Below, piece by piece: positions 2,665 through 59,200 of a stretch of 64,000 bases of DNA. Under the pieces are notes generated by a model, which worked only from the letters and a program-made list of their open reading frames with translations, made no database searches and was not told where the DNA came from. How positions within the stretch are numbered: the stretch's first letter is position 1; the number at the start of each line of letters is the position of its first letter. The translations under genes and the position numbers were made by a program. Source of the stretch: a virus (lineage: Duplodnaviria; Caudoviricetes); the IMG/VR virus record IMGVR_UViG_3300033073_000738, positions 1 to 64,000 of that record; one strand, given 5' to 3'.

Positions 2665-3170
2665 AGATAATTAAAATATCATTAGACCACTACATTATAG
2701 TGGATGAAAGTAAACAACCCGTTCAAGGATATTATTATGATAATTTCATAAAAGATATAAGAGATACAAGAGGTGCAGAGTATGGAGAAGCTGACCATTG
2801 TTGGCAAATAACACACTCCACACAACTTGACAAGGGAATGGATAATGTTACATTCATCTCTTTATCAGAAGTAAAAGAACTATTAGGAGAGGTGGATGTG
2901 GAGAAGAAATCATACGCATTTATAAAAAAAGTAGAAGGCTCGGAAGAACACCGTCTTACTTATATTGATGGTTACAGAGAATCCCTTGAAGATAACAAAG
3001 ATAGGAAGTATACAAAGCAAGATATGGTAGAATGGGCTATGTGTATGATTGCTCAGTATGTGCAAGGTAATACTAACATATGGAACAGAGAACTTCTACG
3101 TCAGTCTTTACCCCAACTCCGAACAGAATGGGATGTAGAATTTGTAAACGGTAAACTTAAACTTAAATAA
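2661..3170 (+). CDS. Hypothetical protein, paralog of 2299-2664 with an extra C-terminal module
   Basis: Same shared motifs plus a KYT..D module. Confidence 0.7.
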   Translation: MKIIKISLDHYIIVDESKQPVQGYYYDNFIKDIRDTRGAEYGEADHCWQITHSTQLDKGMDNVTFISLSEVKELLGEVDVEKKSYAFIKKVEGSEEHRLTYIDGYRESLEDNKDRKYTKQDMVEWAMCMIAQYVQGNTNIWNRELLRQSLPQLRTEWDVEFVNGKLKLK

Positions 3171-3172
3171 CT

Positions 3173-3361
3173 ATGTGTGGAGTAATAGAATTTGATAAAT
3201 GTGACTTCTGTCATCAAGAGAAACCAGTACATCGTACATATCTCAGACCATCTGATTATGTTAAGCCTCAAGACCCTCAAGAATATCTAAAGCTGTACAA
3301 TGAGGGTAACTATTTTATTATCATTAAAACCTGCTCTAATTGCGGAGTTCCTAAAACTTAA
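3173..3361 (+). CDS. Small Zn-ribbon protein
   Basis: CDFC...CSNC. Confidence 0.65.
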   Translation: MCGVIEFDKCDFCHQEKPVHRTYLRPSDYVKPQDPQEYLKLYNEGNYFIIIKTCSNCGVPKT

Positions 3362-3367
3362 ACTAGT

Positions 3368-3460
3368 ATGATGGAAAGAATGTATCTTGTAAAGATTAAT
3401 GGTCAATATATTACTATGACCGAAGGTGAGTATGAACAATATTTAATTTACGGAAAATAA
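3368..3460 (+). CDS. 30-aa hypothetical peptide (below ORF track cutoff)
   Basis: MMERMYLVKINGQYITMTEGEYEQYLIYGK fills the intergenic gap exactly. Confidence 0.5.
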   Translation: MMERMYLVKINGQYITMTEGEYEQYLIYGK

Positions 3461-3465
3461 ATATT

Positions 3466-3720
3466 ATGAACACATTAGTAAAACTCCTGATTGTTGTAAC
3501 GCTTACAGGGTGCAGCTGCAATTGGGGTGGTAAAGCAGAACGTGGTACAGTAATCATCTTAAATAAAAAACAAGGTTTAACATATAGATGGAACATACGA
3601 TATTACAGTATGTACATCTATAATGGAGAGAATTCAAAGTGGTACAACACAGACCAATCTACATACAATATGTACAGCATAGGTGATACCATCAATACAC
3701 TCATTTTTACAAACGAATAA
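3466..3720 (+). CDS. Putative lipoprotein or membrane protein
   Basis: Hydrophobic N-terminus with LTG-C. Confidence 0.55.
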   Translation: MNTLVKLLIVVTLTGCSCNWGGKAERGTVIILNKKQGLTYRWNIRYYSMYIYNGENSKWYNTDQSTYNMYSIGDTINTLIFTNE

Positions 3721-37629: not shown

Positions 37630-37665
37630 AGAAAGGCACCAGTAAAATGGTGCCTTCTCTTTTTT
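37630..37665. terminator. Bidirectional terminator at the convergence of the two gene blocks
   Basis: AAGGCACCA/TGGTGCCTT with A- and T-rich flanks. Confidence 0.8.
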
Positions 37666-40600: not shown

Positions 40601-43600
40601 TTCTGTATTTTGCAATATAGCAGCCTTCTCATCAAGAAGCTCTTGCATACGTTGAAAATACTCATCTTTGATAGAAACCACTGTGTTCAACTCAAGCCAT
40701 TTCTTATACTGCTTGCTATTCTCACCCAGTTCAAGTTTCTTCTTATCATCTATCTTACGGAACATCTCCTCATCAATATAGTCGTCATAAAGCTTCTTAG
40801 AGTTTTCTTCATACTTCTCCAAAGCTTCGGCAATCTTTAGAGCATCCCCGGTCTTCATCTTATTCTTACTGTCCCGTTTTTCTTTTAGAGAGTAATATCT
40901 CTCCCATACTGATTTGATATCCTCTAGGTCAGAAGGAGATATTTCACCAGAAGCCCAGGCTTCTTTAGAATATTGCACCTGTATTTTCCTCAGGTCATCA
41001 AAAATGGCCCCTGTTATCTCACGTATTGTCTTGGTCTCTCCCTGGAAACTAACTGTCTGCTCAAGAGGAGCTGTCAGTTTATAATACTCTTCTGTATACT
41101 GTGACTCAAAATACTTCAGCTCAAAATCCTTCTTGGCTTTCTTAGCTGCTTTGATCTTGTCTTTGTCTTTCTCAGTCTCAGCATCTACCAGATTCTTCTG
41201 CAGAACAGCATAGTCATAATAAAGACGCTCGTCAAACTCACTCTTGAAGAACATCTGCTGCATCTCTTTACCATTATATGGATTGAGTACAGTGGTTATA
41301 TACACCAAACTTTCGTTCATCTTCTTTTGGTCAAGACCTCTGCCATACACTTGAGCACGCTTATTAAACTCAACTGAAGTGTTATCCCTCAGTTCTTTAT
41401 TCATCAAACGAACTCTGTCCAGGGTGGCTTTTAACTTCTTTGCAGCACCTGCTAATATGATATCAGGGTTGGATATTGTAGCTACAAGTTTACCAAAGAA
41501 CCAACCCACATCACCCTTGTCACCTTTTAAGAAATCAGTTATAACTGCTTCACTGGGTAGGTCAGCCATTTCTTGACGCAGTTTCTCCTCGAGTTTTTTG
41601 TCACCCCTTTGTTTGACAGCGACAATCATCTCTTGATACTCCCCTTTAAGATTACCTATAAGGTCATCAGAAAAACTGGTCTGCAACATCTTAGCAATAG
41701 TGGGCTCAATACTTGCAACATAGTCTTTACGAATCGCCTGGATAACCCCTATCAGTTTAGTAAGATGACTTACCACCGGATTATTCTGGTCAGTTGTTTC
41801 CATGTATCCCAGTAGCTCTTCAAACATTGTCTGATAACCAATAAGAAAATCTCTCATCTTACTGAGCTCATTTAACCTTTGACTTGCTGACTTGGTATCT
41901 GTAGGAGTAGTATTACGAAGCTCCTCAAAAGCTTTACTTACAGACTCTATTACAGGCACTGATAGATCCAGAACAGATAGAAAGTTCTTCTGTATCATCT
42001 CCATCTTGGACGCATCGTCGTTTTCCAACATACTTTCGAGTGTGGTCTTCAAGATGTCCTCTTGTACTCTCAGACTATTGGTTCTTGTACGTTGGTCAGT
42101 AATGAGGTCAAGTATCTTTTGTGCGTCCTTGTTCTTGGTAACAAAGTTTCTGAGCTGCTCCAAACGAGCTGTAGATTTTGTAAAAGCTTTCATAAGCTTT
42201 TCTCTGCTCATCTTATTCAGAAACGCCAACCGCTCATCAGGAGTAAGCTCTACTGTTTCACTATTAGCATCTTTATCCAGGTCAAGATTGGGAAACAAAT
42301 GGTTACCCAAACGAGTATCAAACTTAGAAGGAGGCATTTTCTCTACAGCAAACTTGTCAATCATGTTGGTCTTCTCATCCAACATATAGGGTATACCAAT
42401 GATCGCTGTATCACCCACGTTAAACCCGGCTTCCATAAGAAGCTTCTTGTATAAGGTAAGCTGCTGACCCCATTTATCAACCAGTCGACGTTTCTTGTTC
42501 TTGAGTTCATTCAATACACCAGGTTCATTCTTTACCCCGTCTTTTGACAAGAGTCGTATAACACTATGGAACTCCTCCAAAATAGTGTCTTTGTTGTCAG
42601 CTCTCTTTCTTAGATACTTGTTCTTAAAGTCATATATCTCAAGACTACCGTCAGGACGAATACGAATGATGTCAATGATGCCACCCATTTTAGAGTTACC
42701 TACAGCCACCTCATTAAGAAGTATAGACCCGTCGCTACGTAGCTCTTTAAGTACATCAACAATACCGTCTTTACCGAATATCATCTTGTTCAATGTCTTA
42801 CGGTCCATCATATTAAAGACAGCACTCAATATCTTGTTCACCTCTTCACCCATATCGTTGAGGTCAATACCTTGGTCTTTGTTAATCTCTTCAATGATTC
42901 TATGCATCGCTGTACCAAAAAGAGTCTTTCTCTTGTTCTCAGATGCCATAAAGAGAAGGTCAACTATCCGGGTAGAATTGTTGGTCATCTTTAACAACTC
43001 TTCCTTTGTAATAGCCTGGTTACTTATCTTGTCTGTAATCAGATCTACCAATGCACGAGCCACCTTTTTGTTGTCACCTAAGTCACCGGTGCTAAGCATT
43101 GTCAAGTCATCAAAATAGAGATCTTCAAAGCTGTCAAGAATAGATTCAATAACAACCGGGTCTTCTAATTCAGAGGTGAAGTCAGAACCCAAGGAGGCTG
43201 TTACAGAACGCAACAAACTACCTTTAACTGTTTTGGTTGTCTTATTACCCTGGTTATCTGTGATAGTCATGTCAAACTCTTCATCAGATGATGCATCAGC
43301 TTTCACAAGCATGTGCTTGTCTTCATCAAATGCTATGCTCGAGTTGAACTGTAGTATCTTCTGAAGAGTCTCTTTCTGCTTTTCATTCATGTTCTGAGCC
43401 TCATAAAAAGCTTTATCTTCATCAGACATCTGATTGTATATCTCATTACTGTTCAGGTTAAGATTGAGGTTGTCAATCTGCTCACTCATGAACATCTCTT
43501 TGAGAATCTCAATAGGGTCACGTTGTATCTTCTTACCCTTGATCCATTCTAATATCTTCTTTACAAGCTTTGTAATGAAGTTATCTTCCGTCTCACGACC

Positions 43601-44377
43601 CCTGGCAGCAATTTCTTTTGCCAGAGCTTCTTTCTTTATCTTGTCAAACCGGATGTTCCCCTTACTGTCTTTGTAGTTGGGGTTGTTCTTATATTGCTCA
43701 AAGGCTTTCTTATACGTATCAGTGCTTCTTATCTTGTCTAAAGCCTCCATAAGAGCTTCATCGTTCTGAGGCATCATATCAAGAAAGAAGTGTAAAGCTT
43801 CTTCTGGTAGAGCTGTATCTTCCAGACCACTTTGTACCATCACCATTCTTTTTGCAAAGTCTGCTATGGCATTGACACCATACTCTTTGATAACGTTGTC
43901 CTGACTAACTACAGAAACCCCTACTCTTTGTAAGAATCGTTTTGCGTAATCAGTCATTGTTAATGAGTCATTGTTATAGTTGAATACCATTCTGTTCCAG
44001 TTGTCCATCACCTTGTCATCAACTGTTACATAGTCTTGCATGTATTCTAATACAGGATAAGTCTCAGAGAATGCAGACAATTGTTGAGCTATATCCGGTG
44101 TGTCTTTTACCTTGTACCAGGTTTTACCCTTATCACGAATAGGTTCAGGATTAATCAGATCTCTTTCAGCAAGTGTTGCTACAACAGTGTCAGCTGAAAG
44201 CTTAGGAAGAGAATCCAAAGACTTCAGTACACCATTATACTTAAGAAGCTCATTTGCTTTGTTAACTGATGGGACAACTCCATTGTTTCTGAAAAAAGCC
44301 AACATTGCTTTATCTTCACCAATCTCACCAACTAACGATTTCCATTCACTTGATTTCTTGTTAGGACAGATTAACAT
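37664..44377 (-). CDS. Giant virion (ejected cargo) protein with zincin-like and PD-(D/E)xK nuclease domains
   Basis: 2237 aa. EEALH...EALA; GT.MH...E...GIIDII...IYDFK...QL.LY; C-terminal hydrophobic segment. Adjacent to the RNAP gene as in crAss-like phages. Confidence 0.75.
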   Translation of the reverse strand: MLICPNKKSSEWKSLVGEIGEDKAMLAFFRNNGVVPSVNKANELLKYNGVLKSLDSLPKLSADTVVATLAERDLINPEPIRDKGKTWYKVKDTPDIAQQLSAFSETYPVLEYMQDYVTVDDKVMDNWNRMVFNYNNDSLTMTDYAKRFLQRVGVSVVSQDNVIKEYGVNAIADFAKRMVMVQSGLEDTALPEEALHFFLDMMPQNDEALMEALDKIRSTDTYKKAFEQYKNNPNYKDSKGNIRFDKIKKEALAKEIAARGRETEDNFITKLVKKILEWIKGKKIQRDPIEILKEMFMSEQIDNLNLNLNSNEIYNQMSDEDKAFYEAQNMNEKQKETLQKILQFNSSIAFDEDKHMLVKADASSDEEFDMTITDNQGNKTTKTVKGSLLRSVTASLGSDFTSELEDPVVIESILDSFEDLYFDDLTMLSTGDLGDNKKVARALVDLITDKISNQAITKEELLKMTNNSTRIVDLLFMASENKRKTLFGTAMHRIIEEINKDQGIDLNDMGEEVNKILSAVFNMMDRKTLNKMIFGKDGIVDVLKELRSDGSILLNEVAVGNSKMGGIIDIIRIRPDGSLEIYDFKNKYLRKRADNKDTILEEFHSVIRLLSKDGVKNEPGVLNELKNKKRRLVDKWGQQLTLYKKLLMEAGFNVGDTAIIGIPYMLDEKTNMIDKFAVEKMPPSKFDTRLGNHLFPNLDLDKDANSETVELTPDERLAFLNKMSREKLMKAFTKSTARLEQLRNFVTKNKDAQKILDLITDQRTRTNSLRVQEDILKTTLESMLENDDASKMEMIQKNFLSVLDLSVPVIESVSKAFEELRNTTPTDTKSASQRLNELSKMRDFLIGYQTMFEELLGYMETTDQNNPVVSHLTKLIGVIQAIRKDYVASIEPTIAKMLQTSFSDDLIGNLKGEYQEMIVAVKQRGDKKLEEKLRQEMADLPSEAVITDFLKGDKGDVGWFFGKLVATISNPDIILAGAAKKLKATLDRVRLMNKELRDNTSVEFNKRAQVYGRGLDQKKMNESLVYITTVLNPYNGKEMQQMFFKSEFDERLYYDYAVLQKNLVDAETEKDKDKIKAAKKAKKDFELKYFESQYTEEYYKLTAPLEQTVSFQGETKTIREITGAIFDDLRKIQVQYSKEAWASGEISPSDLEDIKSVWERYYSLKEKRDSKNKMKTGDALKIAEALEKYEENSKKLYDDYIDEEMFRKIDDKKKLELGENSKQYKKWLELNTVVSIKDEYFQRMQELLDEKAAILQNTESVKLAEVNRELNLLTRPYKDRDGIVKAQLMSSEKKIKMKQLEEERTSLMDSSDNISINGYTPEEQETLAKENMKKKLGHPYNKYLIASIHKEAEVRRLLRSESDPDYALKVARLKEINAELGTMRTMSESKYYIEEMQHQMELFAEARGISVDELNEDASLYEEFTNTPWYLENHNIEYFKLYEDDEDVKKSESPIYAWKRFEPNAKYLDRKPGLQYRKRVMKESYTNEKGEEVQLMNNENRDVLNRFKPKANDVYRKQYGVDHPYRLKDFVDLETKMRNKTATAAEKVDYENLLYISTSTLAAQEDIELSQRLGLAVPFMEKTLTERTIETKGENIKQGVNSRAESIIQGIRRKFSRTDQDIDQTGTSESSISDLQLMATIDNNQAKFVPVRFSRRGEAENASYNVWSGFLNYNASINRKKELEKELAFVNGLEEILADTQNQPKSEASNMVINKVFKKYMPELKQKINEGGNTRLEVLRSFINSVMYNEEYFKGFDVLGVNTQKTVSQLMALTSYTTLGIAPFNWTVNWMSGNIQNIVEAAGGQYFNMSQFTRDKAMLFKGDDKHGSVVNDMMADYGKLGNRSFWGQVFEVFDPIQGEFENEYGHNTNFSKVKNPFQLGIFSGKIFGEWEIQSSAFISFLKNIKVYQGKMIDKETFVNEKLGDRENMSLEEITNKRLEALKEFDALDTNLLDVMELDKQGKLVVKDQFKDVFEFGSQQFSDYVAKLHAMQKKINGSYAKIDKTYAEKTSIGRMMFFFRKYFIPLGLNRLGVRRVNYESMSVEEGFYLTFFRTFVKDIAKMKLNIVANWNNYSEHEKRAIKKSLADAGFVLSIILLYHLALGYDPDDPDRFKKLRKKSWGSQSALYVLLKVKSETEQFLPGFNIQELKRIWSNPSMLLSEANSYIKMGNLMISHTLDVLPGFDYQKQLYYQKDVDQSGLKDEGDSKLLAEIVNSFSGYTGKTFHPIDAVKGFESLNR

Positions 44378-44385
44378 GTTCAGTA

Positions 44386-47300
44386 TTATTTAATTTTACC
44401 AAGACAACTCATACGATTAAAAAACTCTTCAGCTGATTCATTCTCAAGCTGCTCCTTCTTATAAAGGTCCGCTATCTGTTCTGCAGACATGCTGAAACTC
44501 AATGTTGAATCCACCATCAATTTGGTGAAAGCTCCCACAACATCAGTTGTAGTGGCTCTATCAGCACTTGCTGTTGCTTTACCAAAGTTGTTAAAGATGT
44601 TTCTACTTTTAGCTGCAGCATCTGCCAAGTCATTCATCATATTTCCACTATGACCCTTGACCCATTTTATAGATACAGAACCACCGCTGGCTTCGATCTT
44701 CTTTATAAGATTCTCAGCAGCATTTACAAGAGTTATGATGTAAGCTTCCTTTGCTTTCCAAGGCTTAGGTTCTCTTTGCTGACTTCCTTCACTGTAGTTC
44801 CATAACCCGTTATAGTTTACAGCCCCTTTGTAATCCTGGTTGATTACAATGTGTTCACCCCCTACATTTGCAAAATGGGTAAGTACAGACACCAGGGCCA
44901 TCATTTCCATGGTAGGATTACTAAACTTAGCATCTGGGTGCAGCTCTTTCAATCGTTGCACCTCTTTACTTTCTTCTGTACCAGATAGATCATAAACTTG
45001 ACCATTTGCTTTGAATACAGCACCAAACCCAATCTTACCGGTACCCTTGATGTCAGACCCATCTGAGTAAACTTGCAATGGATTCTCTTTAGTGGAAAGT
45101 TTAGTTGGTGTAACAGATTTATCTGAAGACTCATATTGTTTATAAATAACTAACTCTCTACCAGCATCTTTCTTAGACTCTTCAATCCATCCAATTAATG
45201 CAGTGTAACCATTAGCAATCATGGCTTTTGTAACAGCATCATTACTTTCTTTTATCGAAGAGAATACCTTATTCTCAAGAGCTGCTCGTTTAATTAACAT
45301 AAACTTACTTTGTCCTTCTTCTGTTGTAGCATCTAATGTTGTTGCAGGCTCATAAGATACTTCTACCGTTGTCACTTTACCAGAACTTCCTATTTCTTGA
45401 AATGGTCTATCTAACGCATAATAAGTACCACCACCTCTTTGTGCATAATTAACCTTAGAAGAAAATGTATCCGATGTTCTAAAGGCTTTAACTGTAACAG
45501 TTGCTTGCTGTTTAATAGTAGTTGTAGCAGGTTTGACAACATCAGATTTACTCCATCTTGAATAACCATCAAGTCTTTCTTCTGTGTAACCCTTTAGCTT
45601 AAGATAGGATGCAATAAGTTGATCAGAAAGATTACCCTTAGCGTATTGATTACCCACTCTAAACGATGCACCGGCTGCAATAGCTTTTTCCAAAAGTGAT
45701 TTGTATTTACTACTAAGAGTTTCTTTGATCTGAGCTTCTGTAACACCTCTAAACAACCCACTACCAGATACCATCACTACATCAGATGCGGTATAGTTTC
45801 CAGTATTTGCTTTACTACCCCAGGCTTGACGATATTTATCTGTAGAACTAATGGAAGCATTACCAGACTTATATCCTATAAACTGAGTAGATTCCTGAGC
45901 CATCTGAATGTCTTTACCTGCATTACCATACATATCAGTAGGTTTGACACCTGCCTGTAGTAGCGGGTTTTCTTTAACAGTATCTTGTTGTTGAGATGAC
46001 ATCAACCCAGCTTTTTGTAAAGCTTCTTTTATAGCCGGCATGTTAGATCTAGTGGCATCAGTTCTTACTGTGGCTTGTCTACCAAGACTAACATCCTCAG
46101 AAGGCAATACAAGTTTGATATTATCTGTAGCAGAAATAGTTTTAATCAGAATAGGTAGTATCTCCTTTACAGACCCTTCACCATGACCAAGACCAGCTAG
46201 TGGCAGAAGTATTGTCTTGTCTTTATTCTCTCTTGCATATACAATGATCTTACGCAGACCGCTTTTCATCAACTCAACATTGTTACCTGTCACTGATTCA
46301 GAATAAGCCCCTTTACCAGGTTTTCTGGTAGAAGGTTCATTACCCTTAACTGGTAGTTGTATCACATTGTCTTTGATCTTGAATTCACCGTCTCCACGTG
46401 TAATCAACCCTTTAGATGCAGCAGCTTGTGCTAACCCAGCACCATGTACACCTTCTAGGTTTGTAGTGATTACAGGAATACCTTGCATTTGGAATATATC
46501 TCCCTCTACAACTTTCTCAGATTGATTTTGAATTACCTCAAACTCAATAGCTGCAGCACCAGGTAAGAATTTATCAATCACATTAACATCTTCTGCTCTC
46601 CAGCCTTCTTTGTGCCAAGTACCTTTCCACCCAGGTGAACCTTTGGGATGTATAGCAGTGACACGTGCATACACTTCTTTCTCTACTTTATAATCAGAAG
46701 TTGTACTAATGTGCCTTACAATATCTCCCACTTTTACATTATATTTATCCATCTCTGTATTTGACCTTGTTGTACGAGTACGGAAACCATGTATTATCAT
46801 ATCAATACTTGTAGGATTGGGCCCCAATGCATCAATAACTTTTTGATTAGCCGTAACTAAACTACCGAAACTCATAACCCCACTTACCTTGTTCTGTGGA
46901 ATATCAGCAACACTTGCTATAGATTTCTGAGCAACTGGTGTAGGCAATAACCCTTTCTCTTGTTTAGATGCCCACTCTAAAGGTATACTAGAGTACCACT
47001 TACCTTTTGTTGCTATTTCACGAGTGAGGGTTTGTTTAGAACCTTTACCAAAAAACGTGGGATTATTACTGCCAAATTTAGAATAAAAATCTCTATAGAC
47101 TGTTTCTTTATACAATCTTTTCTGTTCAGAATCTTTTCTTTCATCTACACTTTTCTGAAACTCATCTACAGCATACCCATACAGCTTATTTATAAGACCG
47201 ACAGGTACAGCTGAAATGTAGCTGTATCTGTTTGAGTTCAATCCGCTCTGGAAAATAGAATACAAAACAAGATCCCTGAAGAACTTTCTTACTTGTATAT

Positions 47301-50300
47301 TGTCTTCATCTGATTGTTCAAGGTTTGCCAGGTTTTCTAATTGAGCAATCACACTCTCTTTCTCTATGGTATTACTGCTGTTCTCAAGAAATCGCCAAGT
47401 GATTACACGAGAGTTTCCTTCACCTCTTTCAAAAAACAGGTTTCTAACAATTGGATATTGTTCTTCAAGAGATGAATACCAGTCTTTTTTCTTGATGGCA
47501 TTCCAATCATCCACCATCTTATTAGACTGAATCAATTCTAACAAATACTCATCAAGTGATTTGTCAGTCTGCCAGTTTTCTTTGAAATACTGTTTCCCTT
47601 CTTCACTACGATCTATGAAGTTTTGCAATACATAATTGACAAAGTCATTCTTAGCTGTGCGAGCAAACTTCAAAAGGTCATCGTTTGTTTTCAGTTTTCT
47701 ATCTTCTGCAAAACCCATCATCAGATAACCACCTTCCTTAAGCAAAAAGTTATTTAACTGAATGTCATTTCTAACAGGGAACAGAGTATTGAGACCTAAT
47801 AGTATCTCTTTTGCTACATTCAAAGGCGTAATTATACTATTAGTAGCAATGTTCTTGACAGTTTCACGAGTCAATACAGACGAAGGTTCGTTAAGATCTA
47901 TAGCTTTTTTATACAATTCTCCTCTTGCAAATACATCAAAACCGGAAGCATAGGGATTGGTATCCCATTTCAAAGCTGTTTGAATGTTAGTTAAAGAATC
48001 TGTGTTATCCTTCAACCCAAGCATCTCTATCAAATATATAAGTTGCTCAAGCTTCATGCTTTCAGAAAGAGTGAATAAGTCTGTACCATCTGGCATCACT
48101 GTTTCTTTCAACTTTTCCTTGCTGAACAACTCATCAGTATTTAGAACATACTCACCTTTAAGTCTATTAATCTTATCGTTAATTACACTTCTTATGGTCT
48201 TTCTGCTTACGCTTTTTGCAACTGCATCTCTTTTTATGACACCCATTTCTTTCATAAGTTCTGCAAGAGCCATTCTCCTAGCTGATACTTTGCTATCTTT
48301 TGCACTATCCAAGAACTTGTTATCATACAAGCTGATCAGTTTGGTATACCTTCTGATGATGGGCTGATTCACAAAGTTCAGTATCTTATCACTTGATATC
48401 CCCATATACTTCATGAAAAACATCAAAGGAGAAAGCTCTGTCACCACATTCACTGCAAACACATAGTCATCTTTAGCCACGTCAACAAACGCATTGATAA
48501 ACTCACTGAAGAACTCACTTTTAAGATTACCATCTTCATCATAAATGCTTGACAAAGACACCTCTTCTATTTTACCCCCTACGGTCTTTTTTATAAACTT
48601 GTTTGAAAACAATGTATTAACCTGTTTGGGGTTCAACTTAGCATCAGAATACTGGAACAATACGTTGAATGTATTAGCAAGAGCTGCAATACCCAGGTCG
48701 TTCTTACCTGTTAATAGACTCAGGAACTTCTTAATGTTCTTTTCTCTATCTAATATCTCTGAGTGTTTGTAGTCAGTCTTTTGTCTTTTAGTACCGTACA
48801 GCTTGTAATAGATTTCGTCTACTATAGGCATTATCTCGTAGTTGGTACTGGGGGTGATAAGCTCAATATAGTTAGCCGGGTGCAGTATCACCTCGCTCAT
48901 TGTATTGATCAGCCTGTTTTGTACAACACTTTTGATGTTGTTGTACTTACTTAAATCAGTGAGGTCACTCTTTTTATAGGGCATATCCATTACTTCCCCA
49001 TCGTAACTTAAAGATGGGTAGAGTATGAACATCTTGTCAATGTCAAAGTCAGAACCGGATTTGATAACAACCTCAGAAGGCATTACAATAGCATCACCAA
49101 ACTGAGCTGGTAGAAACTCTGCTATTTCCATTACGTCCTGGAAGTTCTTACCCTGTGTAGGAATACGATATGCCACCATTTGAACACTCTTTCTATTCTT
49201 GTTCATCCATTCTTCGTCTTTGAGCATCTCGTTCATCCTATGAATAGACTCTATCTTCTTACCATCTTTATGTTTCATCTGTAAAAGAGGTAGCCAGTTT
49301 CTTGTCATACCCACCTTCACCTGCATAGGAGTAACTACTTGCTTTCCATTCACTTCTTTTAGGTCGTAATACTTAAGCTCTGTATTACCAAATGTCTCAA
49401 GAGCACGATCACTGAGTTTTTTAGAATAGTTTATACGCTCCATACCTGTAGTGGCTACTTGTATGAGCATTGTTCCATTTGCCTTATATCTTACCAGGTT
49501 GTTGTTTATAGCAGATATGATGATGCCCTCTATCACCTGAGCTTGCACTGTAGCATCCAGGGGTACAGTGAACTTACCTGTTGCTGCATCATAGTTAAGG
49601 GCCTTGATAACGTTGCTGTCTTGGTTCTTCTTTTTGACTTCTGACAGAAAGTAGTCAACCATCTTCTTGAGGTCGTCCACTTTCAGTTTACCTTCTTCTT
49701 GGCTGAAACGAATCCCAAGCTTATTAAATAGAGTTGCTTTCTCTATTTCTACAAGCTCATCTATGTACCTTTTGTAATCTTGATACAGACCTTTGAAATC
49801 TGGATGTTCCAGATTCATCATGATCAGCTTCCTGATCTGTGAACCAAATACAGAAGTGTCGTGAATCTCTGAGTCTATTGTTACCTGCTCTTTCAAATGG
49901 TTGAAGAACAAAGTGTTTGCACTTTTGAAATCCAAACTCTTGATTAGTTCTTTTCTTTCTTTATCGGTGAGCCCATTGATCTCATTTCTCTCCATACTAA
50001 GAAAAGGAGTAATAGTACGTTCACCGGGATTATTACCATCAAAGCTTTTGTAATAATCATCCATGTCTTTAGGCGTCTCTACCTTGCTACCGCTTTCAAA
50101 CTTTACATACCCATATCCACCAAACTCCATTCTCTTAGCTAGATGCTCATCTGCTGTTCCTTTAATCAATGTAGGAATCAAAGGTTGTATAGAGAACTTA
50201 TCAAATACCGGCACCAGGGTCGTATAACTACCGTTATCTACTGTTCTATTATACTCCATAGGGCCAGCATACTGGAACTTCTTAGGAGGAAAATACACCT

Positions 50301-53286
50301 CAGCTAATGGATCATATCCAACCGCGTCACGTTTCTTTATAAGTTCGCTACGTAACTTGGGGTCTTTTTCTGCGTCAGCAAGTTCATCATAGTGGGCAAA
50401 GTCAACGATCTTCTTATATGTCTCCTCCTGTTCATTCGACCATTGACCAGTAAGAATGGATATATTACGATAGAAGTCAAATGTACATTTACCCTGACCA
50501 TCAGCTTCTGTACCCTTGTATTCATTCTCGATTACAGCTTTAATCTTCTCGTCATAAAGCTTGATCATTTCAGGGCTGAGCAAACCTTTTTCTTTCTTTA
50601 GCTTCTCAATGTTTGCTATAATCTTATCCTTATAAGATGATACAAAGTTGACATCTTTTAACACAGCACTTCTAAATCCAAAATCTACAGACTGACGAGC
50701 TAATGCCTCAGTGTATTCGTTTTTGTTCAAATAACCTTTCTTATACAAACGTTCTATCAAATTCCTACCGGATAGATTTGTGTTTGCACCATACCCTACA
50801 GAGTTTGAGTAGTTATTGAAATCCTCTATCAGGTTCTTATCAAGGGAGGCAAAAATACCTGTAGCTGAATCTTTGGGAGATCGTTTATGAAAGTCTTTGA
50901 AATAGATGGAGTCACCAAAGAATACTTTCATCTGGTCAATATCCATTAAGAAAGTATTAGCCAGGTAGTCATGTATAACGTTGGTCCATGGGTCTTTACC
51001 CATTTGCAGCTCGTCTTTACCAAAATTGAATACTTTAAATCTCTTATTGCTCCACAGTTTCTCAGCAGGTTTCAATCTTTCATAGAACCTCTGAGCATAG
51101 TTGTTCATGTAATCTGTAATCTCATTCTTTACATTGTTATGCAGCTCACTGTTTGGAACCAATGCTACTTCATCAACACTCTTTGCTTTACTTAATATTG
51201 CATCCAGTTTGTCCCTGATATCAGAATCTTTGATGATGTCTTCAAACAAACCCCAGGTATTCAAACTATTTACAGAAGCTCTAGTGAGGTCTTTGAAAAA
51301 CCCTTTCTTAGCCAGGTAACGCATTTGCATAGTGTCCTGAAGATGATCCACCACCTTAGATAGAAATACTTCATTACTAAATATTTTAGCAGTGCTGTTC
51401 TTAAAAAAAGACACTATAGGTCTCTTCTGAGGTAGCTCAAGATTCTTATCAAAATAGTAATCCATCTTTACACCCAGGTCAGTAGACTTATCTCCCAGAC
51501 GTAATACCGAGTTATAGCCCTGCATACGAAATGAGTTGATGTCCTGGAGGAGTTTATCAATGTCATTCAGATCTGTACTACTTGCACCATCTGTATCTTC
51601 CCCTTCTTTCTTAAGCTGTAGACCACCTGTATTGCTTATCTCAAGACGATTGTATTCTCCTTCGGTAGCAGACCATTCTAGTATATTAGTGTCTACATTC
51701 TTCTTTATACGACGACGCTTGCCGTAGTTTTTACTACTGGGGTCAAAAAAGAAAAGAGAATTCATGAACATACTGTTACGTATGGATGGGTTTCTCTCTG
51801 GGTCTAAGAAAGCAAGCGATGGTTCATTCTTTAATATATCTTCTAGAGTGGGATACTTCTCAAAATCATTAAGAGCATTGTTGATAACAGTGAAGTTATT
51901 GTGCAACTGTAACGCGTGCATCCTGTTTCCCTCTGAGGTGATGACGTTACGGTCCATGTTATAACTCTTGTTGTATTTCAACTCCAATGCTATAAGATCT
52001 TTGATAAGGTTGTTTTGACCGTCGCTAATCTTCTTTGATACCCATTTACCTTTTTCTTGAGTTCTGGTATAAAGATCCTGGGTAACAGCTTTAAGGGGGT
52101 TTGTTATAAACTTATCATCTTGTATATTCCTTACAACTGCAAGAAAATGATTGTATATATACTGAAAAGCAGTTGTATAACCCTGACCTTTAGGTCCTAG
52201 AGCTCTACTCGACATCAGATGCTTTTCTGTCTGTGGAGAAAACTCAAATCCCAGACCTTTTAAAAATGACAATTGAGTTGCTTTTAAAGACGGCCCATCT
52301 ATATTCTTGAATATATCTTCCAGTCTTTCTATAGCATTCTTATTAATCTCCCATGCACCATTGTTATTGTCAGCAAGATTCACCTCAGTACCATCTGGTA
52401 GAGTGATGGGCATACCCACCCTATTGAAGTTAGCTTCAATCTTCATTTGATAACCAGAGGTCTTACCGGTAGCTGCCATGAAGTTCTTCAACAACCCATT
52501 GTCTTCTAAGCTCATTTGATATATAGGCATAAAAGCCTTGGCAAATGAGTTCCTGAAATTGATTCTGAACTGCGTCTCTTCTTTTGTATGGTCTTTCTTG
52601 TGTTTCAGCTTGTCTATAATCTTGCTGTACTGAGGTATGTCATTTACATACTTTTCCATCTTAGTAATGATCTGGTCAAGACTTGTAGAGTTCTCTACAT
52701 GAGTCATCAGATTCCTTACAAAGTTGGAATAGTTTACAGAAGATGTAAATCCATATTCATCAAACACCTCGTCATCTTGTAGGCTCCTGATGAAAATCTC
52801 AACAGATTTGTCTACATCATCCAATGGATCTATCTCATTAGCTGACACATCAAAGACCATTCTTTGTATGGCTTTATCGTCATCACCTATTTGAGTGAGG
52901 TCTACCAACCCGTCTTCGCCGGTCACCAATTTATTACGAAGCTCAAATACCGTAGAGAACTTAATGAAGTTAGCTTGAACACTTTTCCATGAAGCTTGTA
53001 TCTCAAGAAGATTTGTGACAATCTTCTTAAACTCTTCTGCATTCTCAGTGTCACCAGATGCTTCAAGACTTGCAACTTTAGCTGCATAGCTTTGAATGTA
53101 CTGAGGCAACACTTTGTCTCTTACTGAATTCAATAAGTTTTCAATAACACTCTTCTTATTCTTTCCTACAAGGTCAAATACAGAAACGCCTTCTTGTTCC
53201 ATAGCACGAAACATGAAGTATTCCAATTTGGAAACAACCTTGACCATTTTGTCTTTCGTAATCTCAAGTGAACAGTTAGCAGACAT
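44386..53286 (-). CDS. Virion-packaged single-subunit two-barrel RNA polymerase with C-terminal accessory domains
   Basis: DGQG, GSQIRK, YRIPTQG and catalytic GSDFDIDK (49033-49050), as in phi14:2 gp66-type RNAPs. Start set at MSANC. Confidence 0.9.
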   Translation of the reverse strand: MSANCSLEITKDKMVKVVSKLEYFMFRAMEQEGVSVFDLVGKNKKSVIENLLNSVRDKVLPQYIQSYAAKVASLEASGDTENAEEFKKIVTNLLEIQASWKSVQANFIKFSTVFELRNKLVTGEDGLVDLTQIGDDDKAIQRMVFDVSANEIDPLDDVDKSVEIFIRSLQDDEVFDEYGFTSSVNYSNFVRNLMTHVENSTSLDQIITKMEKYVNDIPQYSKIIDKLKHKKDHTKEETQFRINFRNSFAKAFMPIYQMSLEDNGLLKNFMAATGKTSGYQMKIEANFNRVGMPITLPDGTEVNLADNNNGAWEINKNAIERLEDIFKNIDGPSLKATQLSFLKGLGFEFSPQTEKHLMSSRALGPKGQGYTTAFQYIYNHFLAVVRNIQDDKFITNPLKAVTQDLYTRTQEKGKWVSKKISDGQNNLIKDLIALELKYNKSYNMDRNVITSEGNRMHALQLHNNFTVINNALNDFEKYPTLEDILKNEPSLAFLDPERNPSIRNSMFMNSLFFFDPSSKNYGKRRRIKKNVDTNILEWSATEGEYNRLEISNTGGLQLKKEGEDTDGASSTDLNDIDKLLQDINSFRMQGYNSVLRLGDKSTDLGVKMDYYFDKNLELPQKRPIVSFFKNSTAKIFSNEVFLSKVVDHLQDTMQMRYLAKKGFFKDLTRASVNSLNTWGLFEDIIKDSDIRDKLDAILSKAKSVDEVALVPNSELHNNVKNEITDYMNNYAQRFYERLKPAEKLWSNKRFKVFNFGKDELQMGKDPWTNVIHDYLANTFLMDIDQMKVFFGDSIYFKDFHKRSPKDSATGIFASLDKNLIEDFNNYSNSVGYGANTNLSGRNLIERLYKKGYLNKNEYTEALARQSVDFGFRSAVLKDVNFVSSYKDKIIANIEKLKKEKGLLSPEMIKLYDEKIKAVIENEYKGTEADGQGKCTFDFYRNISILTGQWSNEQEETYKKIVDFAHYDELADAEKDPKLRSELIKKRDAVGYDPLAEVYFPPKKFQYAGPMEYNRTVDNGSYTTLVPVFDKFSIQPLIPTLIKGTADEHLAKRMEFGGYGYVKFESGSKVETPKDMDDYYKSFDGNNPGERTITPFLSMERNEINGLTDKERKELIKSLDFKSANTLFFNHLKEQVTIDSEIHDTSVFGSQIRKLIMMNLEHPDFKGLYQDYKRYIDELVEIEKATLFNKLGIRFSQEEGKLKVDDLKKMVDYFLSEVKKKNQDSNVIKALNYDAATGKFTVPLDATVQAQVIEGIIISAINNNLVRYKANGTMLIQVATTGMERINYSKKLSDRALETFGNTELKYYDLKEVNGKQVVTPMQVKVGMTRNWLPLLQMKHKDGKKIESIHRMNEMLKDEEWMNKNRKSVQMVAYRIPTQGKNFQDVMEIAEFLPAQFGDAIVMPSEVVIKSGSDFDIDKMFILYPSLSYDGEVMDMPYKKSDLTDLSKYNNIKSVVQNRLINTMSEVILHPANYIELITPSTNYEIMPIVDEIYYKLYGTKRQKTDYKHSEILDREKNIKKFLSLLTGKNDLGIAALANTFNVLFQYSDAKLNPKQVNTLFSNKFIKKTVGGKIEEVSLSSIYDEDGNLKSEFFSEFINAFVDVAKDDYVFAVNVVTELSPLMFFMKYMGISSDKILNFVNQPIIRRYTKLISLYDNKFLDSAKDSKVSARRMALAELMKEMGVIKRDAVAKSVSRKTIRSVINDKINRLKGEYVLNTDELFSKEKLKETVMPDGTDLFTLSESMKLEQLIYLIEMLGLKDNTDSLTNIQTALKWDTNPYASGFDVFARGELYKKAIDLNEPSSVLTRETVKNIATNSIITPLNVAKEILLGLNTLFPVRNDIQLNNFLLKEGGYLMMGFAEDRKLKTNDDLLKFARTAKNDFVNYVLQNFIDRSEEGKQYFKENWQTDKSLDEYLLELIQSNKMVDDWNAIKKKDWYSSLEEQYPIVRNLFFERGEGNSRVITWRFLENSSNTIEKESVIAQLENLANLEQSDEDNIQVRKFFRDLVLYSIFQSGLNSNRYSYISAVPVGLINKLYGYAVDEFQKSVDERKDSEQKRLYKETVYRDFYSKFGSNNPTFFGKGSKQTLTREIATKGKWYSSIPLEWASKQEKGLLPTPVAQKSIASVADIPQNKVSGVMSFGSLVTANQKVIDALGPNPTSIDMIIHGFRTRTTRSNTEMDKYNVKVGDIVRHISTTSDYKVEKEVYARVTAIHPKGSPGWKGTWHKEGWRAEDVNVIDKFLPGAAAIEFEVIQNQSEKVVEGDIFQMQGIPVITTNLEGVHGAGLAQAAASKGLITRGDGEFKIKDNVIQLPVKGNEPSTRKPGKGAYSESVTGNNVELMKSGLRKIIVYARENKDKTILLPLAGLGHGEGSVKEILPILIKTISATDNIKLVLPSEDVSLGRQATVRTDATRSNMPAIKEALQKAGLMSSQQQDTVKENPLLQAGVKPTDMYGNAGKDIQMAQESTQFIGYKSGNASISSTDKYRQAWGSKANTGNYTASDVVMVSGSGLFRGVTEAQIKETLSSKYKSLLEKAIAAGASFRVGNQYAKGNLSDQLIASYLKLKGYTEERLDGYSRWSKSDVVKPATTTIKQQATVTVKAFRTSDTFSSKVNYAQRGGGTYYALDRPFQEIGSSGKVTTVEVSYEPATTLDATTEEGQSKFMLIKRAALENKVFSSIKESNDAVTKAMIANGYTALIGWIEESKKDAGRELVIYKQYESSDKSVTPTKLSTKENPLQVYSDGSDIKGTGKIGFGAVFKANGQVYDLSGTEESKEVQRLKELHPDAKFSNPTMEMMALVSVLTHFANVGGEHIVINQDYKGAVNYNGLWNYSEGSQQREPKPWKAKEAYIITLVNAAENLIKKIEASGGSVSIKWVKGHSGNMMNDLADAAAKSRNIFNNFGKATASADRATTTDVVGAFTKLMVDSTLSFSMSAEQIADLYKKEQLENESAEEFFNRMSCLGKIK

Positions 53287-53288
53287 TA

Positions 53289-56200
53289 TTAACAAACTTT
53301 AGTATAAATAGTATTTAGTTTCGGAGCAAAGAACTTCTTCTTCTTAGGAGGATTGGGTATGTTAATAGGTGCAGCATTTTTGCTGTCCTTACTCACCTCA
53401 TCTGTCTTATTCTTGATTGAGTTGGGGTCATCTACAACCTCTTGCTCTGTAATTGGAGCAGGTGCTTTGTAGTTTAGATCTTTGGGTGAAACAAACTCAA
53501 CAATAGAATTGTAACGCTTCAGGTTATTTACATCAGGTATATCCTGGAATGTAACCTTTAGACCAACTTCGTTAATCAAAAAGTCCTTGAAGTTCTTCTG
53601 TACAAATGTAACTTTTTTAACACCATCCTGCTGGTCTAATACCGGAAACATAAACGGCACAACACCGTTGAACCATTGTGAATAGATATTTATAGGCAAC
53701 CTACCAATGTAGTTCATAACCTTCTTGAGATTGTTCTCATCCACAATAACCTTTTTAGAATTCTTGTCCAGTGTGAATATATTATACGTAACACGTTCCT
53801 TGTTTTCTATAATGGTTACATCCTGTAGATTATTACTAATCCTGAGGTTATATTTGTCGCCGGTCAACCAGATGTTCTGTACAAACATTCTTAGGTTGTT
53901 ATATATACCACTTTCTGCAGGTATCTTCTTCTCCAGGTTTCTTTCTAAGAATGTTCTAATAATAGCAAATGTATAGGGAACAAAAGCAATCTCTTGGTCA
54001 TTAAGTTCTACCCTAGCATTTCTTGAAAAAGGAGGAAGCAAACCACGTCTGTTGATAGCTCCACTGGCATCTTTAATCAAGGCATTTAGTTCACCTGACT
54101 CTTTGTTTATTACAATGTCCACATGATCTTGACTAAGTTGTCTCCTAAGCTCAGGGCTTGTCAAAGTATTTGGTGAAGATGTTGCATTAAGTAATGACAC
54201 ATCTTTAAGATTCATTACACCTGCTGTAATCCTATTCAGTCTAGCAATCTTTGTACGACCATCTTTCACCTCACTGACCATCTTGTCATAAGCCTCTTTT
54301 GCATTAGGGTCAAGCTTATTCTCAACTACGGCATTGCTGAACTCGTTCAACATGTTGAAATAGACAATCTGATTCTCTCCACTTTCTCTCAAACCTTTGC
54401 TGTCTTGAAGATTGTTCTTGTCGATCACACCCACTTGTTCACCCTCTTTATTGAATATGATGGGGTTGCCGTCTTTATCAGATATATAACCAATGACGTC
54501 GCTGCTATACTCCAGGTCGTACATTGTTGAATCACTACCATCCCAACGCAACATTGAATTGTTCTTGGTGATAGTGACCCTGTAATCTTTTAAAGACTCC
54601 ACAGGCTTAATATGAAGCTTGTTGATTATATCTCTCACCTTGTGATAGTAGCTTGTAAAGTAGTTACTCTCCACCGGCTCACCTGTCTCAACATCATAAT
54701 ACAAATCATTAGACGTGCTTCTAAATGGATTCTCATTCTGAGCTGACTTGTCAGAAGCTAATGGTGTTCTCAACACAAGCATGTAATCAAGAGGCTTCAT
54801 AGAACCAGAAGCAACCTCGTCTTTGAATGTAGAAGAAGCTTTTACAACTGGTATACCTGATTCTTTCTCTTCTTCACTAGGCACTTTGAACTCAAACTCT
54901 ATCTTCTTCTGTAGTTCTTTAGATATGGGAATTCCAAAATAGTCTTTTAGAGCTGCGTTTATCTTTTGTTCAGTGGCTTCAAGTTTAGACTTGTCAAATA
55001 AACCACCTCTATCTACCCATTGTAGGAAGTCCATCACCTCATTGTTAGTATCATATATGAGTTCTTTGAGATTATTACTTCCCTTGGTTACACTCAACGC
55101 ACCCACTTTAATCAGCTTACGGATCTGCTTTACATCACCAATAGCAGAATATACCTCACCATAGTTCTCAACAGCAACAGCAGGATAACGTGTTCTCAGC
55201 TCACCAAACACTCGACTGAAACCCATTTTAGATAGTTTCTTAGCAGCCGTATATTCTTTCTCAAAACTATTGAACTCATCCACACTTCTAAATCCAAGTG
55301 AGGGAAGTTTGAAATCTGGTGTTACCTGGAATGCATTCTCTTCCAAACTGTACATACTAGGGAACATACTGTACCCTTCCATTACATCACTCATGTTGCC
55401 GCTTGCATATGTTCCATTCTCATCTAACGGACCCATGAGTTCACGGATGTACTCAGCTACAGTATCTTCTATAAGAGGAATGTATCCATTCTTTTCAGCA
55501 AGCTTTGTCAATACAGCTTCAACCCTTGCTTGTGACCTAACACGACGAGGATTGTTGCGTCCCAGGGTGTAGATCTCAAACTTAGACATCCCTGTAGCAT
55601 CAGTTACATAATAATATGTACGACCTTCCACCTCAACACTAAAAGCATGTTTGAGTTTGTTCTTATATTCCTCTATACGGAAGCGTCGCTTGTTAGCTGT
55701 TATAGCACTTGATAATGTATCATACTCAGATTCAGATATAGCATCTTTTGAGTATAGCTTTTTGAATTGCTTTCTTAGTTGGTCAAGGTCTGTAAGAGAT
55801 TTTGCTAAACCAATCTTCTCCAGCATTTCACCGGATGACGTGTTTAGTATCTCAGAGGTGAGATTCAACACTTCACTCAGTGCAGTTTCATCTGTCATTA
55901 CACCAAGTTTCTCCAAGAGTTTCTTGATGAAATCCATGAACACCTGCCAGGTAGTCTTCTTAGAGTTAGCATAAGGTATCTTAGCTAACAGATATTGAAA
56001 CGCGGGGTTGGTAAAAGCTTCTGTTACAAACTCCCTAAGTTGCTCGTCAGGTGATAAGTCACTATTAAAAGCATAAAAATGACCGGCCAGTTCAGAATTC
56101 TTTACAGCATTGTATACAGATCTGAGTGCCCTGGTGTATTCACTTTTAGGATCAGCAATAGCTGTCTCTATCTGCTTATGGATTAACTCATGCAGAATGA

Positions 56201-59200
56201 CAGTTTCTAAAGCACTACTTGGATATCCTTCCCTATAGGCTGTAGCTGAGAGGTCGATGTTAATCTCACCGGTCTCTGGGTCAAAATCACCTACACCTTC
56301 TATTGTATTATCAAACTTGATGGTGTCTGAGTCATTGAACAAAGACATCATATTTCTTGCAAGAAGCTTCTCAGTATCTGTAGCAAAGTCACTGTCAATA
56401 ATAAACTGCAGAGCTTGCTTGATACCAACCTTGTCATCTTTAGCCCCAATAGCTTTCCTAAGGTCTTCCTCGTTTCTTAAATCAGTCGCGTCTTTAGGAC
56501 GAAGACTAAGGAATGCTAACTTATCTATACTTATCCCAGATTCATTGTACACCAGATTGCCACCCATGTCTACAGACGTAGATGAGAAACCGGTTGCAGC
56601 TTTGAATTTAGTCTTGATATCTTTTAACAGCTCCTCAGAAAAGTCTTTCACCTGTGCAATCTGACCGTTGTCTAATACGGGTGTCACTCCAGGATTCTCT
56701 ATAATATCAGCTATTTGGTCAAACGTAAGTTTAACACCGGAGTCTGTATTACCAACCGCACTCTGAGCTTCAATCATTGCTGTAAGCAATATCTTTATAA
56801 GGTTGGTTCCAGTATCAGCATTCCACATTTTTGCTGTAGCCAGCTCTACTATCGGCAACCCAACTTGTGATGTCTTAGCACCTTTTTGTATACTGTCGTA
56901 AATAGAAAGTATCTCGTTTTTGAAAGCATTCAGGTCTTTGCTAGCTTTAGGACCAGACAAAAGCTTTTCAAACATACTCATGGTTGCAGTATCCAGGAAC
57001 TCATCAGCATTCTTTATACCATTTGTTATAGCGTTCTGTTTTCTTTCCTCAATACTTTGAATGATGTTCAATGTATTGGCATCACTCATGTTGCTGTTGA
57101 TCTGCTTTCTGAATTCCTTATACTTACTATATTGTTCGTCACTGATTTCTATGGTCTTATTAAAACCAAACTCATTCAGGATATCATCTACAGTGTTGAT
57201 GGACTTGTCTGCAAGAACGTCTCTTACCTTTTCTTCGGCCACTTTATAGACATCACTTGACTTACCGCCCTCATTTGAGTCTTCATATAGATTCAAAATG
57301 AGTTCCTGTAACTCTTTCTCATTTGCCTTATCTCGTGGGTTTTTTACATATTTCTCAGCAGCCTTGTTAATCTGAAGAGCAAAGATTCTCGACACACCCA
57401 GATTAATCAGCTCACTGGCTGTACTAAGTTGATTACGACTATACTTTTTAAGGTCATCATCACCAATGGTACCACTCGCAATCATGTTATCTATTGCCTC
57501 AGACTGACCAAAAGTTGCATCAACATCAATAGGTACCTTTCTGTTTCGTTTGTTTACAGTGGTGCTAAAGTCCCTTTTGATCTCTGTGGCTAATACAAAT
57601 TCTCCACGGAGGCTATTCAAATCAGCAGCTTTCTGTTTGAAATTCTCAAGCCTTGTCTTGATAATCTCTATATATCTTTCCCTGTCTTTGATGTATTGGT
57701 CTAACAAAGGACTACCGCTGCCAGCTACACTGGTCATGCGTTTTTTCAGTTCATCAACCCTTTTGTCAATAGCTTTACGATATGCGCTCTCAAAATAAGC
57801 TATCACCTCATCTTTAAACGAAGGGTCAAGCTCCATGTCCAATACTTCAAATATCTTCTCAACAGCGTCAGTAATTAACAAGTTGGGCTTGTTGAATACG
57901 CTGTCGATAAACAACTTGATCTTCTTTGCATCCTTTGATATCTCCCTTCTCTCTAGTTCTTTGACGGCTTTACTTAACTTCTCTTTTAATGGCACTTTAT
58001 ATTTAGACTGCACACCTGGCTCAAGCTGATTGATTAACAGTTGCATCTTAAGCCACAAAGCTTCTACAGCTTTTCTTGTCGCATCAGGAGAAGAAAGCAA
58101 AGCATTCATCTCACTTATCAGATCGTTATACTGATTGACAAATTCACGTGAGGTTTCAGAAAGTGGTTTGCTTTCGTTACCACCTTGCTGGTTCTTTTTG
58201 TTACGTTCTGTCAACTTGTTGACTATCTCATCAGCTTGTTTATCATCTATCTGACCACTGAGAATACCTTCCTCAAGCTTCTTCTCTATATCTGATTGAG
58301 GGACACCATCAGCAATATCCTTAAGAATACTCTGAAAGAAGTTGACTTTAGAACCTCCACCGCTTTGTCCTCGTTGATTACCACCCGGACTACTACCAGG
58401 TTGTTTACCATCTAGATCAGCTAATTCTGCATCATACAAAACTTCCCCTTTTTTAGCAAGAATTTTTCCAGTTCCATATTCTTTTACCTCATCTTGAGAA
58501 ATAACTTGTTTTATAATATCAATACTAACATATCCTTCAGGAGTTAGTACTTCATTACTCATTAATGTTTCAATTCTAGTAGTAGTTTTACTACCATCAA
58601 TTAAAACAATTATGGGATTTACAGCCTTTTGAAGAGCAGCTCTAATTAATGATCTCCTTCTTTCTATATCAGACAATGGTGTAGTTGCTGTAGATTGTTT
58701 ACCATCAAATGCAGCTAACTTTGCATCAATTTCATTCTTAATTTTATCAGCAAGAATCTGACTATAAGACTTGTTTTTACCATTGATTACTTCATCTTTT
58801 CCAATTGAAGAATCTAATAGCTTATCTCCATAGAATTCTTTAGCTACTTCTAAAGCTAATTTTGCATCAGCTTCAGTATAACCATGCATCACAACCTGGT
58901 CACTTAATGCAGGACCTTGAGCTTCCAGATCTTGAAATATCTTAACTCCCCCATTATAACCCCTCTCTTGAAGTTTCACCATAAATTCTTTAAGAACTTC
59001 TGGCGAAAAATCATTCAGGTCTTTTAGAGAAAAATAGCTTTTATGCGTAACGCTATCATTATCATTTGTACCGTTGTTAATAGAGAAGAACAACCAAGAA
59101 TTTGAATCCTTTGTGCCGGATAAGAGTCTTACATTTTTAGCAAGATATCTTTCTACTTGTGGTTTGTCCACAATAGACATCATTGCATTATAAAAACTAT

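Follow-up and report, generated by a model that had tools for sequence, protein, structure and literature searches.

Single cysteines at facing termini suggest end-to-end linkage of the giant RNA-polymerase cargo proteins of crAss-like phages

Of all viruses in the human gut, crAss-like phages are the most abundant. In two described members, phi14:2 and crAss001, the virion RNA-polymerase (RNAP) module consists of gp67, gp66 and gp65 and of gp47, gp50 and gp49, respectively. The three phi14:2 proteins are annotated in the record notes as proteins of the virion that mass spectrometry (MS) detected, and the cargo proteins of crAss001 were detected in virions by MS (PMC10172136). The crAss001 cargo must partly unfold to cross the tail, and its order of extrusion is likely to be governed by packing and by how the cargo proteins interact with one another (PMC10172136), while some crAss-like phages carry the RNAP-module proteins as a fused polyprotein (preprint 10.1101/2020.03.07.982082). 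In phage N4, the virion RNAP (vRNAP) is a single "beads-on-a-string" polypeptide comprising an N-terminal domain, a core and a C-terminal domain, and how the three crassvirus proteins relate to this one polymerase has been posed as an open question (PMC13434306). Here, we analyze three giant genes, designated A, B and C and known here from their sequences as genes, in a 64,000-nucleotide window that forms the first 64 kb of the 121,014-bp IMG/VR virus record IMGVR_UViG_3300033073_000738 (completeness estimate 93%), with particular regard to the single cysteines (Cys) at the facing ends of their products.

The list of open reading frames (ORFs) of the window places genes A, B and C head to tail on the minus strand (Table 1). 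By tblastn, gene B matched phi14:2 g066 with an E value of 2e-16 and 21.8% identity over ~890 aa, and its search matched 101 phage records, mostly of crAss-like phages. Residues 1411-1419 of the protein (GSDFDIDKM) contain the DFDxD metal-binding motif of the two-barrel polymerase core. Gene C matched phi14:2 gp65 by BLASTP (E 9e-10), such that gene B is flanked by a gp65-like gene C and, judged by position, by gene A in the place of gp67. PHROG and Pfam searches with gene A found no family match, and by position it is the counterpart of phi14:2 gp67 and crAss001 gp47; the same searches with gene C were likewise without a match, as was a comparison of the 25-kb block with GenBank phages by DNA megablast. 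Taken together, gene B is a predicted crAss-type virion RNAP of the gp66/gp50 type, and A, B and C are best explained as a putative virion-packaged RNAP module equivalent to those of phi14:2 and crAss001. The modules share the DFDxD two-barrel core, matches to both gp66 and gp65, a location of the giant genes at the end of the structural block, and the terminal Cys pattern described below, whereas the present one differs in its low identity (~22%), its larger proteins and the RNase H domain of gene B.

Proteins A, B and C contain five Cys in 8281 residues, four of which are the last residue of A, residue 5 of B, the sixth residue from the end of B and residue 4 of C. Protein A has a Cys-free N-terminus and Cys3078, its final residue, as sole Cys; B has Cys5, Cys934 and Cys2961 and no others; and C has only Cys4, its C-terminus being Cys-free. 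An earlier sequence-only reading had reported five Cys in about 8,280 residues, four of them at these terminal positions and one internal to B, with Cys-free outer ends, and every count proved exact on recounting. Its statement that the four terminal Cys pair up at the two gene junctions was also borne out by reading the codons. The probability that at least four of five Cys would fall on the 32 of 8281 positions that make up the 8 residues next to each of the four facing termini is ~1e-9. Although the interval first pointed to, 44366-53295, comprises gene B and the Cys4 codon of C, the whole feature extends over 37664-62525. Cys depletion reaches further upstream, where two more large proteins (1022 and 1093 aa; genome positions 62535-68964) have no Cys at all, such that the five-gene block at 37664-68964 of the 121-kb genome encodes 10,396 aa with 5 Cys. 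By comparison, the Cys content of the other ORFs of this genome is mostly 0.5-5%, and the next genes upstream carry 4 Cys in 1009 aa and 27 in 1840 aa. This low frequency is that of Cys-suppressed ejection proteins, and the premise that ejected virion proteins avoid Cys agrees with the Cys suppression reported for N4 and DEV ejection proteins (PMC11445570). Proteins of the N4/DEV type, however, have no conserved Cys, whereas the terminal Cys found here are conserved in more than 100 loci.

In all 16 homologs of the A type, the N-terminus is free of Cys and a Cys is present 0-12 residues from the end; in most of them, it is the only one. Among 61 C-type homologs, 58 have a Cys at position 3-4 within M-x-x-C-P-N-K and none has a C-terminal Cys; the three exceptions begin with a different N-terminus that does not contain the motif. 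Matches to gene B (n=120) have a Cys at both ends in 93 cases and at the C-terminal end only in 24, with an N-terminal Cys in 94. Gene B orthologs begin M-x-N-N-C-S and end EEFLxRxSC, in many cases with LGKIK after it. In the alignment of B (A2), column C2961 is conserved to at least 90%, and in that of C (A1), C4 of gene C is nearly invariant. Internal Cys amount to 0.036% in the matches to gene B and to 0.015-0.036% across the homolog sets. The terminal Cys persist at 20-25% sequence identity, and the EEFLxRxSC tail is retained where the Pfam hits of the protein differ (RNase H, AlkB, ART-PolyVal). The region of gene B at 44389-45400, between the polymerase core and this tail, looks like a swappable cargo slot, which holds RNase H here; relatives (proteins P0002-P0120) instead give Pfam hits to AlkB (PF13532), ART-PolyVal (PF18760), NADAR (PF08719), RecD-like helicase domains or cpYpsA (PF12694), and the slot resembles the "polyvalent protein" theme of injected effector domains.

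The reference phages display the same pattern. In phi14:2, the sole Cys of gp67 (1797 aa) is its last residue, gp66 (2180 aa) contains only Cys3 and Cys2179, and gp65 (1421 aa) only Cys3. In crAss001, the one Cys of gp47 (2341 aa) is the third residue from its end; gp50 (2412 aa) combines Cys5 with an internal Cys and another at the ninth position from the end; and gp49 (1349 aa) has only Cys5. The crAss001 gp47 gene, moreover, is not a neighbour of gp50 and is read from the other strand, and in several metagenomic loci partners still match when a longer gap or small inserted genes that contain Cys lie between them. Because of the opposite strand and of these matches across inserted genes, the pattern is not a nucleotide-level junction effect, and the predicted chain order is a property of the proteins and not of gene adjacency. 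The proposal in the sequence-only reading that Cys bridges join the proteins in gene order is therefore upheld by comparison as regards the pairing of ends, but not as regards gene order. In cr272_1 (L118, NC_055903), the giant genes hold 18-37 in-frame stops under translation table 11 and keep the terminal Cys pattern; such stops fit the stop-codon reassignment known in some crAss-like phages.

A scan of IMG/VR with the single gene B protein gave no match, and it was an alignment-based search that found the loci analyzed here, i.e., 30 from alignment A1 and 80 from alignment A2, with ORFs called mechanically (L numbers designate loci and P numbers proteins). The 80 polymerase loci, to which the following counts refer, group into 68 clusters when the identity threshold is 60% and into 35 when it is 40%. 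At junctions between consecutive Cys-poor proteins, we found a Cys on both sides in 143 cases, on neither side in 43 and on one side only in none. The terminal Cys are conserved and co-occur in the crAss-like phages compared, and the outcome that would have refuted the sequence-only reading (terminal Cys not conserved or not co-occurring) was not observed. Since the loci are related by descent, these 143 matched and 0 mismatched junctions do not represent 143 independent events. Chain proteins had 38 internal Cys in 522,105 aa (0.0073%), the N-terminal Cys was always at position 3-6 (n=145), and the C-terminal Cys was followed by 0-9 residues, with two or fewer in 81% (n=147). Six ends in five loci appeared to dangle, but the C-terminal ones have a partner further downstream and the two N-terminal ones lie close to where the retrieved sequence begins. 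The number of terminal Cys tracks the number of chain proteins, which is three in most loci, two in L003, L049, L099, L110 and L112 as well as in cr118_1 and cr272_1 (Suoliviridae), four in L039, L067, L077, L094 and L109, and at least five in L111. By sequence comparison, the proposed rule is thus confirmed to extend to reference or cultured Steigviridae, Intestiviridae and Suoliviridae and to 110 IMG/VR loci, and is relaxed in p-crAssphage.

A middle member of these chains is either a giant polymerase or a small adaptor (131-665 aa); the adaptors contain two Cys and no others, one at position 3-5 and the other 0-2 residues before the end. Members of adaptor family A3 have a variable middle and a conserved 56-aa C-terminal connector with the consensus NLxLTPxVxxYLY...ILEKIKCL. 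The last 56 aa of an adaptor and those of P0059, a polymerase protein of 4199 aa, are 54% identical (E 2e-14), and the gene that follows P0059 in its contig begins MNTCPNPNSPEW. In every locus examined, the connector was carried by the protein just before the C-type protein starting M..CPN. We rejected the idea that the 193-aa adaptor is a clean fission product of P0059, as the two have only the last 56 aa in common. An AlphaFold2 (AF2) model of this adaptor (predicted local distance difference test score, pLDDT, 74.7) was confident for an N-terminal alpha/beta domain and weaker for a helical connector, and its comparison with folds in the PDB gave no significant match. In an AF2 model of the first 260 aa of gene C (mean pLDDT 76), residues 1-9 formed a low-confidence coil ahead of helices at 10-19 and 21-30, and Cys4 is accordingly modelled on a flexible stub.

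Fused or continuous forms of the module were examined in L021, L003, cr118_1 and p-crAssphage gp44. The C homolog of L021 is contained within an ORF of more than 3953 aa that has no Cys, which fits a Cys pair standing in for the peptide bond. In L003, an N-terminal extension of 1900 aa runs on into a B-type region that starts at about residue 1914; this protein lacks a Cys at its N-terminus and has one as its end, and the next protein, a C homolog, starts MSC. BLASTP of gene A against the N-terminal 1900 aa of the fused protein P0056 gave no match, and its description as an A+B fusion is inferred from position and N-terminal style, the B part being the one shown directly. In fusions, continuity is thus provided by a peptide bond (no Cys in L021, no N-terminal Cys in L003), whereas split forms have a terminal Cys pair at their junctions.

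The pattern that we observed is conserved, pairs the ends perfectly, and follows the proteins when their genes are split, fused or relocated. From these comparisons, we consider it probable that pairwise end-to-end links, most likely disulfides, turn the separately encoded cargo proteins into one linear thread. Selection has purged nearly all Cys from the cargo, as in other ejected phage proteins, the exception being a single Cys, on a stub of very few residues, wherever an end faces the next protein. The C-terminal Cys of one protein would then pair with the N-terminal Cys of the next, the disulfide forming once the particle is assembled or released, such that A, B and C would become a linear and barely branched thread of ~8,300 residues, a "pseudo-polyprotein". 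This thread would be co-packaged at 1:1:1 and would pass through the tail unfolded and in a fixed order, after which reduction in the host cytoplasm would free the subunits. The short stubs would keep each branch small enough for a narrow channel, and the removal of other Cys would prevent mis-pairing. Such a disulfide-linked thread would be feasible, since crAss001 virions hold intermolecular disulfides as seen by cryo-electron microscopy (cryo-EM) (PMC10172136) and the cargo partly unfolds. Contact between the paired ends, a disulfide as their bond and the purpose of the chain are what we infer from the sequences. In its broader form, the proposal would amount to an undescribed principle of Crassvirales, in which single terminal Cys join the cargo into a covalent thread of up to ~10,000 residues that is cleaved by the reducing cytoplasm instead of a protease, the Cys purge giving specificity and two-Cys adaptors splicing in new cargo domains; for this wider statement, we judge the chances of being right or wrong to be about even.

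Several points weigh against a disulfide-linked thread. Assembly takes place in a reducing cytoplasm and gut habitats are anoxic, so that a disulfide would have to form late. Searches of this genome for thioredoxin, glutaredoxin and Erv1 gave no hit, although the Erv1 result says little because the control genomes were also blank. Gene B retains one internal Cys, Cys934; a Cys at about this place occurs in most close orthologs and is absent from several, and phi14:2 gp66 is free of internal Cys. In p-crAssphage (L115, BK010471), gp47 (857 aa, 1069-3642) has a lone Cys second from its C-terminal end, yet gp46 has no N-terminal Cys, and gp44 holds 7 internal Cys. On the other hand, p-crAssphage gp45 (a C-terminal and no N-terminal Cys) and gp44 (Cys3 and no C-terminal Cys) still fit the rule, which may be relaxed or modified in this gut lineage; the record of this phage also annotates a thioredoxin and a truncated thioredoxin nearby (gp39 and gp37). 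The 80 loci share descent, and the counts taken alone would also fit middle proteins that are closed upon themselves together with a first protein linked to the last.

Among other explanations, a metal ion (Zn, Fe or Cu) might join the paired termini, with two parallel chains perhaps sharing a four-Cys site. This would account for the same pairing of ends and could be established in the reducing cytoplasm during assembly, with no problem of thiol oxidation there or in anoxic habitats, and searches of this genome found neither an oxidase nor a redoxin gene. Each terminus, however, offers a single Cys, with no CxxC and no conserved nearby His in IYEKTCK, MxNNCS, EEFLxRxSC or MxxCPNK, and chains carry 2, 4, 6 or at least 8 terminal Cys, which excludes, as a general rule, that each particle has one shared Cys4 hub. 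We regard a metal link as unlikely. The zinc hook of the Rad50 type, or an intermolecular Zn(Cys)4 site, was rejected as a known counterpart on the same grounds, namely one Cys per terminus, no CxxC, and chains that hold from 2 to at least 8 terminal Cys.

It is quite unlikely that each terminal Cys acts alone, whether in attachment to a virion part or cofactor, as an acylation site, or as a processing or packaging signal. The Cys do lie on exposed, flexible stubs, and the C-terminal Cys of p-crAssphage gp47 is unpaired. An isolated function nevertheless leaves unexplained why the first protein has no N-terminal Cys, why the last has no C-terminal Cys and why the fused form is Cys-free, and no signal peptide or lipobox precedes the Cys at position 3-6. 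Bacterial lipoproteins were discarded as a model accordingly, the Cys following soon after the initial Met with neither a hydrophobic leader nor a lipobox. Split inteins and trans-splicing were discarded as well: the C-terminal Cys has only 0-9 residues after it and the N-terminal one 2-5 before it, stubs that are too short and therefore leave no room for a HINT fold, and no intein family was among the Pfam hits.

A further arrangement, in which the middle proteins close upon themselves through their own N- and C-terminal Cys while only the first and last are cross-linked, appears very improbable. It would satisfy the N- and C-terminal Cys counts equally well, and small adaptors of 131-200 aa could bring their own ends together. 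The connector module, however, travels with the protein that precedes the C-type protein and not with a particular N-terminus, which favours pairing between neighbours over self-closure. In addition, the fused ORF that contains a C homolog holds no Cys, and two-protein chains permit only an end-to-end pair. Finally, an origin of the pattern in chance, gene-calling artefacts or nucleotide constraint at overlapping stop and start codons, to which the short gaps in the window (2 nt from the stop of A to the ATG of B, 8 nt from the stop of B to the ATG of C) might have pointed, has next to no chance of being correct and is already refuted by the probability of ~1e-9 in the window alone, the persistence of the pattern at 20-25% identity, and its occurrence on opposite strands, across inserted genes, and with 0-9 residues after the Cys.

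Schitoviridae such as N4 and DEV also have nearly Cys-free ejection proteins and a giant vRNAP, for which passage through the periplasm and unfolded threading through a narrow tail have been offered as the rationale (PMC11445570; PMC13434306). These phages show no terminal Cys rule, one polypeptide being sufficient, and their polymerase folds are unrelated to the crassvirus type. The split crassvirus cargo comprises at least three polypeptides with one Cys per facing end, an arrangement that would recreate the single thread. Both the disulfides of crAss001 (gp57 dimer, tail hub and ring proteins; PMC10172136) and the bonds proposed here are between subunits in crassvirus particles, but the former brace the static shell and tail and were seen by cryo-EM, whereas the latter would join mobile cargo and are predicted from sequence.

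Full-text literature searches, in which subscription literature was not covered, found no paper that mentions these Cys, and the crAss001 atlas (PMC10172136), the phi14:2 polymerase preprint and the 2026 N4 paper (PMC13434306) contain nothing on crassvirus cargo Cys. The genes belong to a module that is already known; the rule of terminal Cys along a chain, and its reading as a covalent thread, are new as far as we can tell. The problem addressed is how nearly a megadalton of polymerase proteins is delivered through a narrow tail. A conserved end-to-end Cys code would be a concrete answer as to order, stoichiometry and release, and would also explain the extreme Cys depletion. It provides, besides, a simple sequence rule for spotting the cargo set and its order in genomes of uncultured phages and, if the proposal is true, a natural design for redox-cleavable protein concatenation.

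Table 1. Features of the giant-gene block (window coordinates) and adaptor-bearing loci (coordinates within each locus).
Feature	Coordinates	Strand	Remarks
Gene A	53289..62525	minus	3078 aa; first member of proposed chain
Cys3078 codon of gene A	53292..53294	minus	TGT, last sense codon, followed by TAA; direct read
Gene B	44386..53286 (ATG at 53286)	minus	2966 aa; middle member of proposed chain, Cys at both ends
Cys5 codon of gene B	53272..53274	minus	TGT; direct read
Cys934 codon of gene B	50485..50487	minus	only internal Cys; within conserved ADGQGKCTFD stretch
Cys2961 codon of gene B	44404..44406	minus	TGT, sixth residue from end, followed by LGKIK and stop
DFDID catalytic motif of gene B	49036..49050	minus	D1413, D1415, D1417; invariant columns in alignment A2
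RNase H domain of gene B, residues 2737-2894	44605..45078	minus	Pfam PF00075, E 1.6e-10; PHROG 531
Gene C	37664..44377	minus	2237 aa; last member of proposed chain
Cys4 codon of gene C	44366..44368	minus	TGT, in motif M-x-x-C-P-N-K
Terminator-like hairpin and T-rich tail	37632..37657	minus	directly after gene C, end of giant-gene block
3' part of Cys-free 1022-aa gene upstream of A	62535..64000, reaching 65603 in genome	minus	ORF read
Adaptor-bearing loci	L002:22748-23143; L020:9418-9999		also L024, L027, L033, L039, L052, L057, L067, L086, L087, L094, L109, L111

The 1022-aa Cys-free protein encoded upstream of gene A is probably unlinked cargo outside the chain, and it is likely, together with the 1093-aa protein, to be one of the channel or unlinked cargo proteins of the kind represented in crAss001 by gp45 and gp46. 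In L013 (2-8789), a 2657-aa ORF that has no C-terminal Cys overlaps by 14 nt a 275-aa ORF ending in Cys; a frameshift or an assembly error has probably divided a single gene into this pair, which is then not an exception to the rule. The small Cys-containing ORFs that lie between chain genes (L048:11711-13050, L052:10024-10641, L087:17284-17877) could be mobile insertions of the endonuclease type. Lastly, the free N-terminus of first-in-chain proteins, as viewed in P0121-P0132, P0050, P0056, P0061, P0075, P0113 and L041, often shows M-[AP]-D or M-P-x-x-D ahead of a Pro/Asn/Thr-rich stretch, which is a candidate for a leading end or packaging signal.

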